Assembly (NCBI GenBank): GCA_965225945.1
Contig: CBDDBZ010000034.1
Location: 128,001 to 192,000, forward strand
DNA: 64,000 nucleotides
Direction: 5' to 3'
Source of the DNA: Alphaproteobacteria bacterium
GTDB lineage: Bacteria; Pseudomonadota; Alphaproteobacteria; GCA-2731375
Under the pieces are notes generated by a model. The model made no database searches. It was not told the DNA's origin and saw only the letters and a program-made list of their open reading frames with translations. Of the stretch, positions 16,792 to 44,845 are shown piece by piece; within the stretch, counting starts at the first letter, position 1; every line of letters starts with the position of its first letter. The translations under genes were made by a program, and so were the position numbers.

Positions 16792-16944
16792 ACTCCATCC
16801 GGGGTCAGGGAATCGGTTCCGAGCGCGCTCGAGCGGGTCGGCGCCTGCGATTCGACGTTCGAGACCTGGGACCCCAGTCTTGGATGCCCAAGAAAAGGGG
16901 TCATTCTGCTTTTGTTCCGCTCCAGCGAATAAAGTACAACCTGA

Positions 16945-17892
16945 TTACGCACTAACCTCAGCCAACTTCAGGAGCCGATATGGCATGGGCGGCGTATGCA
17001 GGGCATCGCGGCCGAGGGCTTCGATCATGTCGGCGAGCCGGTAGCGGCGGTTGTATCGGTACTGGAACGCCGCCAGGTAGCGCGGCACATGCTTGGGTCG
17101 GATCGCATGGTAGGTACCGCGCAGGGTGTTTTTGAGGTTGCCGAGGGTGGTGTTGACCCATTTGAAGGCGGGCACGGCGACGGCCCCGGGTCCGGAGCCG
17201 GTGGATATCGGATGATGCGCACAGCCCCGCGTGGTGACGGCGGTGAAGCAGTTGAGCCCGTCGCTGAAAACGCTCGCCCCAGGGCTCAGGTCGCGCTTGG
17301 CCATCTTGGCGATCTCGCTCTTGCGGAAGCCCTTGACGCGGCGCAGCTTGATGCGCACGGGCTGGCCCTCCGCCGTGGTCTGGACGGCGGCGACGAACGG
17401 CGTCTTGCCCGGCGCGCCCCGGCCGCGCTTGGCCCCGGAACGCCGGCCGCCGAGGTAGGCATCGTCCATCTCCACCCGCCCGGTGAGCGGCAATTTGGCA
17501 TCGCGCTCGAGCATGGACTGCATCAGTTTCTGCTTGATCTTCCAGGCCGTGGTCTGGGTGACGCCGAGCCGCCGGCCGAGTTCGAGGGAGGAGATCCCTT
17601 TCTTCGATTGGGTCATGTGATAGATCGCCGAGAACCACAGGGTCAGCGCCAGCTTGGTCGCGTGGAAGAGCGTGCCGGCGGTCAGCGAAACTTGATGACG
17701 GCAGGCGGCGCATTGGTAGAGTTTTCGCCCGGCGATCTCGCAATGGCGCGTGGCGCCACATCGGGGGCAGGCGAACCCCTCCGGCCAGCGCCAGCGGAAC
17801 AGGGCCTCGCGACACTGCTGCTCGGTACCGTACAACTCACGAAAACGCGGCTCGCTGAGCCCCTTCTGGAACTGAACCTTGTTGCGTGGCAT
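16945..17892 (-). CDS. IS1595-family transposase
   Basis: MPRNKVQFQKGLS, CPRC/CAAC, VEMDDAY, SDG, WVNTTLGNLK, YRYNRR; RBS AGGAG before ATG 17892. Confidence 0.95.
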   Translation of the reverse strand: MPRNKVQFQKGLSEPRFRELYGTEQQCREALFRWRWPEGFACPRCGATRHCEIAGRKLYQCAACRHQVSLTAGTLFHATKLALTLWFSAIYHMTQSKKGISSLELGRRLGVTQTTAWKIKQKLMQSMLERDAKLPLTGRVEMDDAYLGGRRSGAKRGRGAPGKTPFVAAVQTTAEGQPVRIKLRRVKGFRKSEIAKMAKRDLSPGASVFSDGLNCFTAVTTRGCAHHPISTGSGPGAVAVPAFKWVNTTLGNLKNTLRGTYHAIRPKHVPRYLAAFQYRYNRRYRLADMIEALGRDALHTPPMPYRLLKLAEVSA

Positions 17893-17914
17893 CGTGAATC
17901 TCCTGTAAAACCAC

Positions 17915-18045
17915 CAAATGTTCACGATTTGTACCACATCAATCCGGCTGAGTAAAGTGACCACCTCACATACATCCTCTCGCGGTCAGGAGCGGGGTAC
18001 CTGGGTAGTTACAAATGTTCACGATTTGTACCACATCAATCCGGC
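17915..18045. repeat. 34-bp direct repeat containing a LexA-type box at the left end of element B
   Basis: CAAATGTTCACGATTTGTACCACATCAATCCGGC at 17915-17948 and 18012-18045; each has GTTC-N7-GTAC. Confidence 0.88.
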
Positions 18046-18178
18046 GTAAAGTGCGTAATCAGGAAGTACAGTGACCCCTTTTTTGCGTGTGTGACCCCTC
18101 GTGTGTGGTGATTCTCTCGCTGCTATCGGCTGCCTATCGCATCCGCGCCCGGCCGCTGGCACTGTCTTCATGTCGTCT

Positions 18179-19732
18179 CTAATGACCGATCCAATCGGAC
18201 TCGAAACGTGCGTAACAGTCACGCTCGCCCGGCATCTTCAGCCACCCCGCCAGCAACCGAACGGTCGCGAGCAGCAGCCGGTCGCGCAGATGGGTCGAAT
18301 TATGGCCATATTCTTCGTAGGTCGAATGTGTGATCTTCTGATTATGCGGGTCGTTCTGAAACTTGCATGCGGTCACCGCCACCGAAGACAGGTACGGCTT
18401 GCGATCGGCCCCGGATTGCAGATAAGCGTGCGCCAGCGCCGTGGCACGTGGGAAGTCGAGTGAGAGAATCGTCTCGTCGAGTTCCTTTAGCAGAGTCGCG
18501 TCGTCCCTTCGGGAAACATCGTGCGCCAAGAGCTCTTGTTCGACGACCGGCTCGAACAGCTTATTAGAGCGGGCCACGTCGTTGACGAAATTGGCCATCA
18601 AGTAAAGCACACGCGGCTGGTAGGGATTGTCGCTCGTGCGGAACCAATCGTTCGCCGTGTTGCAGTAGTCGAGGGCATGCTGACCATCGGTGAAGCTTCT
18701 GGGTACGGTGGTCCGCAAGATCAGCTCGGCGGCGGCGACCTGGATGGTGTCGCCGAGGCTCTTGATCGACTTGCCGCCCTGAAGCCGCTCGGTGATGCGC
18801 TCGAACAGGGTTTCCTGATCCGCGGTCATCAGTAGCGCAACCATCTCCTCGACCTCTTCGTCGCTGAGCGCGCTCCGGTTCGCCTGCTCGAGACTCTTGC
18901 CACCGTCGTCGGGGAAGGCGTCGGCGAACATGACGCACACCGAATCGTAGAGCGAGTAGTACAGCGGCCCGATCGCCATGTCCGGCACCCCCATGTAGAA
19001 TACCCCATGGGCCTTCTCCCAACCGATGTAATCGGCCAGATCGGTAATGGCCCGGGCGCGAATCGACTTGTGCCCGGTGTTTCTCGCCTTGCGCCCGATG
19101 ATCGTTTCCTGCATGTCGATGACCCCGAGGAAGCGGATCTGATCACGCAACCGGGCGCGCGCGCTTTCGTCCGCGGCCAGACCCAGGAACAGCCCGTAGG
19201 AGCGTTTGGCGTCGCCGCTGATGGTCGCGACCATGTGCTCATGCAGGCGCTCCTCGACCGTTCCCTCGGTGACGATCGGGCTCTGCTCGGGGTTCCACAC
19301 CACCGGGCCGTAGTCCGGCGGCGGCACGTCCATGCCTTTCATCAAGGCGTAGCGCCCGGGGTAGCGGCCCAGCAGCTGATTCCAGATGTCGAGACCGGCC
19401 GGCACATACCAGATGCTCTGCAACAGGGGTAGGAGGCGATACGCTTCGGGCATGAACGGCATCAGGCTGACCGAGGCACGCAAGCCGAGCAGGGTGTGGT
19501 CATTGTTGACCAGGGTGATGTTGCCATCGCGCATATTGATGTGGCTGTGAACCTGTACGTACGGCGCCTCGGCGGCCACGACGATGCTCAGCGCATCGCC
19601 CACGGAGCGCCCCTGGTGGACCACCATCCGGTGGAAGATGTCGGCCGTGCGGGGTTGATCGCGCTCCAGGATCGCCTGGTTCAAGGCATCGAAATTCTCG
19701 TCCTGGGATATCTGCTCTCGGGTCACCAGCAT
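18179..19732 (-). CDS. Hypothetical helical protein with recurring His motifs (about 517 aa)
   Basis: Long ORF with normal composition; motifs NNDHTLL, TGHKSIR, GQHALDY, DPHNQKITH; no family recognised. Confidence 0.8.
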   Translation of the reverse strand: MLVTREQISQDENFDALNQAILERDQPRTADIFHRMVVHQGRSVGDALSIVVAAEAPYVQVHSHINMRDGNITLVNNDHTLLGLRASVSLMPFMPEAYRLLPLLQSIWYVPAGLDIWNQLLGRYPGRYALMKGMDVPPPDYGPVVWNPEQSPIVTEGTVEERLHEHMVATISGDAKRSYGLFLGLAADESARARLRDQIRFLGVIDMQETIIGRKARNTGHKSIRARAITDLADYIGWEKAHGVFYMGVPDMAIGPLYYSLYDSVCVMFADAFPDDGGKSLEQANRSALSDEEVEEMVALLMTADQETLFERITERLQGGKSIKSLGDTIQVAAAELILRTTVPRSFTDGQHALDYCNTANDWFRTSDNPYQPRVLYLMANFVNDVARSNKLFEPVVEQELLAHDVSRRDDATLLKELDETILSLDFPRATALAHAYLQSGADRKPYLSSVAVTACKFQNDPHNQKITHSTYEEYGHNSTHLRDRLLLATVRLLAGWLKMPGERDCYARFESDWIGH

Positions 19733-19772
19733 CGCTGTTCTCCACGCAACCGTTTTCTTTGGATCATCGAGT

Positions 19773-20146
19773 TCAGGTCCTCGTCGGAGCCGAGTACCCG
19801 GGCCGCCGTCCCCGTTCCCAGACATGGGCGCGGGCCACGTCTTCGTTCAAATCACCACCCCAGCCCGGGCGGTTTGGGATGATCACATCGCCGTTCACGA
19901 TCTCGAGCTTTGCCGTCAGAAGATCATCTTTCCACGGCACGTCATCGATGTCGATTTCCGAGATGCGAACATTGCCCACCGACGCGCAGAGATGCACCGA
20001 GTGAAGGGTGGACAGATGGCTGTAGTAGTTGTGCGGTGCGATGTTGATGTCGAAGCTCTCCGCCATGTCCGCGACCTTCTTTGCTTGCGTGAAGCCGTTC
20101 CACGGCAGGTCGACCATGCAGACGTCCATGGCCCGGGCTTCGCCGG
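19773..20146 (-). pseudogene. C-terminal fragment of a mandelate racemase/enolase-superfamily gene
   Basis: DVCMVD...APHNYYSH...EIDIDDVPW...PNRPGWG; 5' part missing, breakpoint at hairpin copy 2. Confidence 0.85.
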
Positions 20147-20195
20147 AGAAAAGGGGTCATTCTGCTTTTGTTCCGCTCCAGCGAATAAAGTACAA

Positions 20196-21220
20196 GGCTC
20201 AATTCGTGAATTGTATGCATTAGTGATAGAGTGCCCGGAACGTCAGGAGGTTGGGTTATGGACGGCAAGGGTTTCCAGGTGTGGCTTTCGGCGGCGCGCG
20301 GGCTGACGCGCGCGCAGCGGCGCGAGGCGCTCGCGGTGCTGTCGGGCCGGAGCGAGGGCGAGGCATCGAAGGCCGCGATCGAGCTTGGTGTGGACGAGGC
20401 CCGGCGCTGTCCGCACTGCGCGAGCGAAGGGGCGGTTTCGCGCGGTATGGCGCGGGGTCTGCGGCGCTACCAGTGCAAGGGCTGCGGCAGGACCTTCAAC
20501 GCGCTGAGCGGTACGCCGCTGTCGGGCTTGCACCACAAGGAACGCTGGCTGTCGTTCGGGGCGTCGCTGGCGAAGGGGGAGACGGTGAAGGCCTCGGCGG
20601 CGCGCTGCGACGTGGCGGTGAGCACGGCGTTCCGCTGGCGTCACCGGTTTCTGGCGGCGGCGCGGAGCGATTCGGAGGTGCTCAAGGGGATCGTGGAAGC
20701 GGACGAGACCTACGTCCTGGAGAGCCGGAAGGGCGCGCGCGGGCTGGGGCGCAAGGCACGGCGGCGGGGCGGCAAGGCGAAGAAGCGCGGCCTCTCGCGC
20801 GAGCAGGTACCGGTTCTCATGGCGGCGGACCGGAGCGGAACGACGGTCAGCGCGGTGCTGCCCAGGGTCGATGCGGCGGCGCTCACGGCTGCCCTCGACC
20901 CGGTGGTCGCGAAGGACGCCCTGCTGGTCTCCGACGGCGGCGCGAGCTACCCACCGTGCGCCGCCGCGCTCGGGGTGAGCCACGAAGCACTCAACCGCTC
21001 GATGGGGGAACGGGTTCGGGGCGATCTGCATGTGCAGACGGTGAACAGCCGCCACAGCCGGTTGAAGGACTTCCTGCGTCCCCGCCGCGGCATCGCCACC
21101 CGCTATCTGGACAACTACCTGAGCTGGTTCCACCTCGTCGGCCTCGCCCCCGGCGCCAATGACCGAGCCTGCCTCGCCGCCGCCGTAACAAGGTGACGCA
21201 TACAATTCACGAATTGAGCC
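20196..21220 (+). mobile_element. IS1595-family element C (ISPna2-like, GGC ends)
   Basis: Perfect 23-bp TIR GGCTCAATTCGTGAATTGTATGC; 8-bp TSD AAGTACAA at 20188-20195 and 21221-21228. Confidence 0.95.
20258..21196 (+). CDS. IS1595-family transposase
   Basis: CPHC/CKGC, VEADETY, VSDG, HVQTVNSRHSRLK, GIATRYLDNYL; RBS AGGAGG. Confidence 0.95.
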   Translation: MDGKGFQVWLSAARGLTRAQRREALAVLSGRSEGEASKAAIELGVDEARRCPHCASEGAVSRGMARGLRRYQCKGCGRTFNALSGTPLSGLHHKERWLSFGASLAKGETVKASAARCDVAVSTAFRWRHRFLAAARSDSEVLKGIVEADETYVLESRKGARGLGRKARRRGGKAKKRGLSREQVPVLMAADRSGTTVSAVLPRVDAAALTAALDPVVAKDALLVSDGGASYPPCAAALGVSHEALNRSMGERVRGDLHVQTVNSRHSRLKDFLRPRRGIATRYLDNYLSWFHLVGLAPGANDRACLAAAVTR

Positions 21221-21283
21221 AAGTACAATGACCCCTTTTTTCTTTTTTTGCTTTCTCGATATGAGCTAAGTCATTGAAAAAAT

Positions 21284-21359
<76 letters not shown>

Positions 21360-44565: not shown

Positions 44566-44666
44566 AAAAAGCGGTCATTCTACTTTTTCGCCTCCGCTGG
44601 CGCTGGCGACACGAACCACGACGAGGCGCGCCGCGGCGACCGATAAAGTAGAATGACCCCTTTTCC
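44566..44666. repeat. Palindromic REP-like element copy 3 (empty, long spacer)
   Basis: AAAAAGCGGTCATTCTACTTT...AAAGTAGAATGACCCCTTTTCC. Confidence 0.88.
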
Positions 44667-44745: not shown

Positions 44746-44845
44746 GAAAGGGGTCATTCTACTTTTCCGCCTCCGCTAGCGCTGGCGACACGAACCACGA
44801 CGAGGCCCGCCGCAGCGATCGATAAAGTAGAATGACCCCTTTTCC
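44746..44845. repeat. Palindromic REP-like element copy 4 (empty, long spacer)
   Basis: GAAAGGGGTCATTCTACTTT...AAAGTAGAATGACCCCTTTTCC; spacer nearly identical to copy 3. Confidence 0.9.

Follow-up and report, generated by a model that had tools for sequence, protein, structure and literature searches.

A REPIN hot spot for one IS1595-family element, and a target rule shared by two, in an alphaproteobacterial genome

Repetitive extragenic palindromic (REP) sequences have been known as landing sites of insertion sequences (IS) for two decades, and IS1016, which has appeared in that context, is now placed in the IS1595 family. The relevant passages of Tobes and Pareja (2006) name REP targeting in the IS3, IS110, IS4, IS256, and IS5 families; elements described as REP-targeting include IS1397 and ISKpn1 (IS3), IS621, ISPpu9, ISPpu10, and ISPa11 (IS110), and ISRm22 (IS4), and IS1016 is tabulated there with a weak association (2/17 and 1/3) (PMC1525189). 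For the IS1595 family, the passages on transposition experiments with ISEc69 report 100% AT at positions 1, 2, 7, and 8 of the target-site duplication (TSD) (PMC7835479). REP-associated tyrosine transposases (RAYTs) are described as typically single-copy (PMC5581495, in the part that bears on copy number). Here we analyze a window of 64,000 nt (the whole stretch studied, positions 128,001 to 192,000 of contig CBDDBZ010000034.1, assembly GCA_965225945.1, from an alphaproteobacterium) in which two neighboring REP doublets each carry a different IS1595-family element, termed B and C, at the same nucleotide. Comparison with the rest of the genome identifies the REP as a true hot spot for element B and its relative, element D, and not for element C; the same-nucleotide coincidence needs no shared guide.

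The 49 bp at 16891-16939 and 20147-20195 are identical (49/49), and the 54-nt stretches that start at 16886 and 20142 are 96% identical. In both places, an insertion sequence separates the 49-bp copy from the right arm that completes the hairpin (Table 1). This identity is not due to chance; repeats of this kind form a genome-wide family. A preliminary description of this DNA had pointed out the identical segments, the hairpin, and a pair of IS1595 elements with divergent transposases, and all three observations hold in the analyses given here. It had also stated that both elements duplicate the same 8-mer. The shared register is correct, and element C is flanked by a perfect 8-bp duplication of AAGTACAA; the duplication of element B is imperfect, pairing AAGTACAA with AAGTACAG, and this mismatch in the last base had been omitted.

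The hairpin is a REPIN (two REP units in inverted orientation) of a family maintained by its own RAYT genes, which encode IS200-like tyrosine transposases. We make this identification because the units form inverted doublets, the doublets fold as hairpins, and a RAYT open reading frame (ORF) lies between inverted units. A genome-wide motif search gave the REP core GGGGTCATT[C/G]T[A/G]CTT, preceded by a run of A, with 114 matches to a loose regular expression, 95 with at most one mismatch, and 92 with an A-rich flank. Most units are arranged as inverted doublets of ~60 bp (short form) or ~100 bp (long form). Intact paralogues fold at -16.3, -18.8, and -30.8 kcal/mol (z -4.0 to -6.7), and 0 of 200 shuffled sequences fold as well. 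The repeat is thus short, present in many copies, and often found as hairpin-folding inverted doublets, which are the defining features of REPs and REPINs. The REPINs of the window are extragenic by eye, a judgment made for the window copies only. Two members of 715 bp hold a 220-aa ORF between inverted REP units (contig C35:366192-366815 and contig C22:27709-28332), and internally deleted derivatives of these RAYT-bearing members are present. Both ORFs match Pfam Y1_Tnp (E 6e-15, 55.9 bits, cut-off 23). The family therefore has a cognate Y1 transposase gene flanked by inverted REP units, as the preliminary description had suspected. A second RAYT, 77% identical, is located between units of a second REP family, GGGGTCAGGC[T/A] (contig C37:31594-33728), and at least five more distant RAYT-like genes are found in the genome. 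The same 20-nt REP arm also occurs in metagenomes, in 53 contigs with G+C contents of 32-69%, where it mostly forms tight REPINs and in some cases adjoins RAYT-like sequence; this is an unusually wide spread for one REP core. IS junctions were not seen in those 53 contigs, although a scan for the intact REP arm by design cannot show them.

Both B and C are IS1595-family members by architecture and by sequence. They are ~1 kb long with terminal inverted repeats and an 8-bp A/T-rich duplication, which is perfect in 42 of 50 copies of element C and 20 of 25 copies of element B; the canonical length of element B is 1030 bp, extended to 1124 bp by an insert in the window copy. Each transposase is of the IS1595/ISXO2 DDE type with an N-terminal zinc ribbon. 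Pfam PF12762 (DDE_Tnp_IS1595) scores 121 bits in B and 60 bits in C, NCBIfam NF033547 (transpos_IS1595) scores 193 and 167 bits (cut-off 75), and the zinc ribbon PF12760 scores 59.8 bits in B and 21.4 bits in C, the latter under the 25.4 cut-off. The two transposases share 26% identity over 158 aligned residues. In plasmid records, the named elements closest to B are ISAeca5 and ISKpn3 (~50% identity), and the one closest to C is ISOar1 (62%). A third element, D, is a relative of B (70% DNA identity) with terminal repeats CCTGCTTATCC; it occupies the same REP register as B and C, with the duplication AAGTATAA.

Rebuilt empty sites reveal a common target rule. Among 40 unique sites of element C, TSD positions 1, 2, 7, and 8 are A/T in 40/40; among 17 unique sites of element B, positions 1, 2, and 8 are A/T in 17/17 and position 7 in 16/17. 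The bases next to the TSD are C-A upstream and T-G downstream, with A at -1 in 16/17 and T at +8 in 15/17 of the B sites. The resulting consensus, (C)A|WWNNNNWW|T(G), where bars enclose the TSD, also holds for 52 unique sites at which relatives of 60-69% identity are inserted in alphaproteobacterial and other metagenome-assembled genomes (MAGs) and, by eye, for 6 B-like sites of the same-genus genome G002 and 5 D-like sites of genome G023. When position weight matrices (PWMs) built from the unique C or the unique B sites are applied to the REPIN, AAGTACAA with flanks A and TG is the top-scoring register. Once a REPIN is struck, the nucleotide is therefore fixed by the ordinary family rule, and B and C share AAGTACAA because both follow that rule. 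Usage of the arm variants is in line with it: as read from the junctions, B entered TTCTACTT six times and TTGTACTT four times (the window copy reads CTGTACTT on the arm-side target copy), and TTCTGCTT, which breaks the A/T preference at an inner position, was used 0 times. Counting only copies with perfect duplications, the values are 4/30, 3/33, and 0/25, respectively. In the mechanism we propose, IS1595 transposases make an 8-bp staggered cut at the palindromic consensus, and two distantly related elements transposed independently into neighboring REPIN copies. In this genome of 66% G+C, A|AAGTACAA|TG is the single best match that a REPIN offers.

The two elements differ sharply in how often they are found in REPs. 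Element C is present in 50 full-length copies, 44 of them at 99.1-100% identity to the window copy, which points to a recent burst; the window copy is the only one of the 50 in a REP. For element B, 25 full-length copies are uninterrupted (90.5-100% identity to the reference copy), and three more are split by an IS66-family element. Ten of these 28 complete copies are in REPs, 5 in a site within an IS91-family element, and 13 elsewhere; if all loci with at least one B junction are included (n = 35), the counts are 10, 8, and 17. All ten REP-borne B insertions share the register TT[C/G]TACTT (AAGTA[C/G]AA on the other strand). They are found in either arm and in REPINs of both the short and the long form; the left end of B faces the outer arm in seven and the right end in three (P 0.34). 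Element B thus shows the fixed position within REP units that is expected of a REP-targeting IS; the presence of most or all copies in REPs, another expected property, is seen in neither element (B 10/28, C 1/50). On a tree of 31 B copies, the ten REP-borne copies require 10 changes for 10 rows (shuffled mean 8.7) and do not cluster. This scatter, together with differing flanks, REPIN forms, and orientations, establishes at least ten independent insertions of B into REPs. A metagenome scan for the REP/B junction returned 0 contigs and so contributes no extra independent events.

To compare these counts with expectation, every position of the genome was scored with the PWMs, and the share of total weight that falls on REP registers was taken. 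This share is 0.30-0.40% for the genome as assembled, 0.18-0.30% after removal of B and C copies, and 0.45-2.6% for PWMs trained only on relatives from other genomes. A strict pattern, A|WWNWWNWW|T, has 763 sites, 54 of them in REPs, and gives a share of 7%. For element C, 0.08-0.13 of 42 insertions are expected in REPs (P 0.07-0.12; P 0.14-0.73 at assumed REP shares of 0.3-2.6%), and its presence in a REP is compatible with chance as an ordinary event. For element B, 10/28 corresponds to P 1e-9 to 1e-19 under the PWM backgrounds, and of the 13 B sites that fit the strict pattern, 7 are REPs (P 1e-5 to 2e-5). The preliminary description had read the paired insertions as shared, guided targeting of the repeat, to be checked against equally A/T-rich sites. 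Part of this survives, as B strongly favors the repeat over every background used; C fits chance, and no sign of recognition of structure or of a REP-bound protein was found. Insertions of B occupy either arm of a REPIN, in the short as well as the long form, and lie in either orientation.

The excess of B most probably stems from a B-type transposase that prefers to insert into a sequence context which the simple additive model misses, and we give this reading a probability of roughly 60%. We infer that the excess was made at insertion and not by later selection, and we think that a harmless site also helps B copies to persist. Terminal branches of REP-borne B copies are no longer than those of the other B copies (median 0.0060 vs 0.0051, Mann-Whitney P 0.48), and among the five B copies with zero-length terminal branches, one is in a REP and two are in the IS91 site. 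Element C exceeds its PWM expectation at two other repeats, with 2 insertions against 0.03-0.05 expected in the IS91 site and 3 against 0.08-0.32 expected in a second palindrome, which indicates that an element need not be old to have hot spots that the PWM does not predict.

Several points weigh against an insertion preference. Element B is older than C (90.5-100% identity to the reference copy, as compared with at least 99.1% for 44/50 copies of C), and the purging of harmful insertions could therefore have left B overrepresented at harmless REP sites. The PWMs rest on 8-52 sites and assume independent positions, which makes the expected REP share uncertain; with the 7% share of the strict pattern, a ~7-fold survival advantage suffices. 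The B-like sites in other genomes (6 in G002, 52 in MAGs) and the five D-like sites in G023 show no hairpin or repeat association; G002 and G023 are genomes without this REP (0-2 matches). The same-genus genomes G001 and G002 have 0 and 2 one-mismatch REP matches and could not test REP targeting; the six G002 sites confirm the consensus only. All counts come from one assembly (6.27 Mb, 66% G+C, contamination 5.6%) with some redundancy, including duplicated flanks on contigs C20/C31, C22/C33, and C1/C15. Lastly, the RAYT ORF matches the NCBIfam model NF047646 (REP_Tyr_transpos) with a score just under the cut-off (79.1 bits, cut-off 80).

The alternative that best survives is retention alone, in which B inserts by a loose A/T rule as C does and its insertions elsewhere have been purged over a longer history. 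We consider this a realistic explanation, if a clearly less probable one. It gains from the greater divergence of B copies, from the modest survival bias required under the strict pattern, and from the behavior of B-like elements as ordinary consensus-site inserters in genomes without this REP. In addition, other repetitive or mobile DNA harbors 19 of the 28 complete B copies: ten occupy REPs, five the IS91 site, and one the second palindrome, one is situated between two C copies, and two have a common duplicated flank. Against it, REP-borne copies are not older by terminal branch length, three of the five zero-length-branch copies are already in the REP or the IS91 site, and the young element C is already above its PWM at two repeats. 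By a crude GC3 heuristic, which is indicative only, the other insertion sites of both elements are mostly non-coding (8/42 C sites and 5/20 B sites are called coding), which leaves no obvious pool of C-type sites where an insertion would do strong harm.

A further alternative, which we regard as rather unlikely, is that transposases of the B/D clade recognize the REP unit directly, or else a factor bound to it (the RAYT, for example), with the widespread REP core serving as a portable safe haven. If true, this would be the first REP-directed DDE transposase in the IS1595 family and, unlike the IS110 cases, would act without a fixed orientation. The broader proposal of the preliminary description, that hairpin structure or a bound protein steers both IS1595 elements in a shared safe-haven system, is improbable. 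The common register of B, C, and D and the strong enrichment of B agree with such steering, as does entry into the stem of the second palindrome, GCATTCATTTTCG...CGAAAATGAATGC (C 4 events, B 1). Nonetheless, C is in a REP in 1/50 copies, the register is the one that the sequence rule predicts, and the TTCTGCTT arm, equally part of the hairpin, breaks the A/T rule and received 0 insertions. Moreover, the strongest shared hot spot, in the IS91 transposase gene (8/18 occupied, 6 B and 2 C), is not a hairpin, and relatives elsewhere use unique, non-palindromic sites.

Finally, it is very improbable that a single B-in-REPIN insertion was multiplied together with its REPIN (by the RAYT, gene conversion, or segmental duplication) or misassembled: the left 49 bp of both window REPINs are identical, some assembly flanks are duplicated (C20/C31, C22/C33), and contig positions C24:91421 and C29:41048 have a common left flank, but REP-borne B copies are scattered over the tree and lie in different REPIN forms, arms, orientations, and outer flanks, and the two window REPINs hold different elements. 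Misassembly, which the preliminary description had named as a possible source of the duplicated flank, left no sign. Contigs of sequencing runs X15, X17, and X20 span 18046-20174 with 0-2 differences and thus cross two junctions, that of the B end with the REP and the left one of REPIN 2. The four runs compared consist of short-read contigs that break in IS copies, and none spans the C junctions; joints in those contigs carry loops of other REPIN paralogues and are uninformative on empty sites at this locus. The sponge-metagenome run X1 also carries the unique 18.05-20.1-kb stretch, at low depth and, as in X15, X17, and X20, with 0-2 differences.

B and C have two other repeat hot spots in common. 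The IS91 site, GCA|AACAAGAA|TGG, is located inside a Y2 transposase gene (Pfam Y2_Tnp and Zn_Tnp_IS91; for example, contig C24:84834) and is occupied in both orientations and by B copies from different branches of the tree. The 11-mer of the second palindrome has 15 matches in the genome, with examples at contig positions C36:66088, C10:10884, C29:39684, C37:80534, and C34:390608. REPs in this genome collect several kinds of mobile DNA. A copy of an IS66-family element is found in the loop of a REPIN (contig C27:65048-69485). Two of the seven copies of an IS with an end that starts TGGACCGCACCCC lie directly against a REP arm, following AATG (contig positions C36:83240 and C32:65334), the end and first ORF of this IS being IS3-like by eye only, and a repeat ending in ...CCGGCGCAC abuts REP units at GGGTCATT in four places. 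The mobile load of the 6.27 Mb includes at least 50 near-identical C copies, ~35 B loci, 18 IS91-family copies, and several IS66 copies.

Nested insertions are also observed within element B itself. A 2.4-kb IS66-family element (Pfam DDE_Tnp_IS66) is inserted in the left end of B three times (contigs C33:300275-303743, C37:247818-251286, and C38:526635-530102), at positions that differ by a few bases and each with its own 8-bp duplication. The window copy of B contains a 63-bp insert (17949-18011) of IS66-family end sequences with the terminal repeat GTAACTACCCAGG, flanked by 34-bp direct repeats of B sequence (17915-17948 and 18012-18045). This direct repeat is longer than the 8-bp duplication that the IS66 element makes elsewhere.

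The segments around the two REPINs do not belong together in related genomes. Two same-genus genomes also have the 548-aa ORF in conserved form (81% and 74% DNA identity), but its loci there bear no relation to the window flanks. The enolase-superfamily gene is reduced to its last 118 codons and covers positions 120-219 of the MR_MLE_C profile only; a search for its missing half gave 11 MR_MLE_N matches, all in open frames of 280-468 aa and none abutting a REP or IS junction, so that no partner of the breakpoint was identified among them. In G001/G002, the counterparts of the left flank, the 548-aa gene, the enolase fragment, and the tRNA-Phe side are found at four separate loci. Together with the truncated gene, this arrangement identifies the region as a mosaic whose joints coincide with the REPIN and IS copies.

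Table 1 Features of the two occupied REPINs and their surroundings, in window coordinates.
Feature	Position	Strand
REPIN 1, left REP arm, loop, and inner right arm, ending in the first target copy AAGTACAA (16932-16939)	16893..16939	+
REP unit in the left arm of REPIN 1	16897-16911	
Element B, IS1595-family insertion sequence, 1124 bp, terminal inverted repeats CCTGATTACGCAC	16940..18063	-
Element B transposase, 315 aa, DDE_Tnp_IS1595 and zinc ribbon	16948..17892	-
Anomaly in the left end of element B (insert and flanking direct repeats)	17915..18045	.
REPIN 1, right REP arm, beginning with the second target copy AAGTACAG (18064-18071)	18064..18084	+
548-aa ORF between the two REPINs, without a Pfam or NCBIfam family	18182..19825	-
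Enolase-superfamily gene, 5'-truncated, ending ~20 bp from REPIN 2	19776..20129	-
REPIN 2, left REP arm, loop, and first target copy AAGTACAA (20188-20195)	20149..20195	+
Element C, IS1595-family insertion sequence, 1025 bp, terminal inverted repeats GGCTCAATTCGTG (also given as GGCTCAATTCGTGAATTGTATGC)	20196..21220	+
Element C transposase, 312 aa	20258..21193	+
REPIN 2, right REP arm, beginning with the second target copy AAGTACAA (21221-21228)	21221..21241	+
tRNA-Phe (GAA), 3' end ~45 bp from REPIN 2	21284..21359	-
Intact long-form REPIN of the same family, unoccupied	44566..44665	+
Second intact long-form REPIN, unoccupied	44747..44844	+

Our finding does not open a long-standing question; it adds the IS1595 family as a sixth to those with REP landing sites. 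A literature search of partial coverage found no paper on REP targeting by an IS1595-family element. Consensus sites are scarce at 66% G+C, and repeats that carry one therefore become recurrent targets: under a loose palindromic A/T rule, the few sites that match in a G+C-rich genome, here the REP arms, the IS91 transposase-gene site, and the second palindrome, become recurrent hot spots. This is relevant to the reading of nested-repeat landscapes and of IS-mediated rearrangements, and it cautions that two coincident insertions are no ground for inferring guided targeting.

As in the REP-targeting IS of the passages cited above (PMC1525189), insertion recurs at one fixed position of the REP, and several kinds of IS in one genome make use of REPs, here B, D, one IS66-family copy, 2/7 copies of the element that is IS3-like by eye, and C once. 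Unlike those cases, the family is not among the five named there, 36% and not all of the B copies are in REPs, the orientation of B is not fixed, and the site follows a general palindromic A/T rule in place of a dedicated recognition sequence. The rule itself agrees with the assays of ISEc69/Tn7052, in which the duplication is 8 bp and A/T is obligatory at positions 1, 2, 7, and 8; the C-A and T-G flank preferences and the repeat hot spots seen here go beyond the relevant passages of that work (PMC7835479). The repeat itself is like the REPIN-RAYT systems as characterized in the corresponding parts of Bertels and Rainey 2011 (PMC3116915), Nunvar 2010 (PMC2817692), and Ton-Hoang 2012 (PMC3333891), with inverted REP doublets as hairpins, tens of copies, and a Y1 gene between inverted units. 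It departs from the typical single-copy RAYT (PMC5581495, in the same part) in having at least two full RAYT copies along with deletion derivatives, and from the REPIN-RAYT systems described in these sources in the range of G+C contents, 32-69% over 53 metagenome contigs, in which a single REP core is found.

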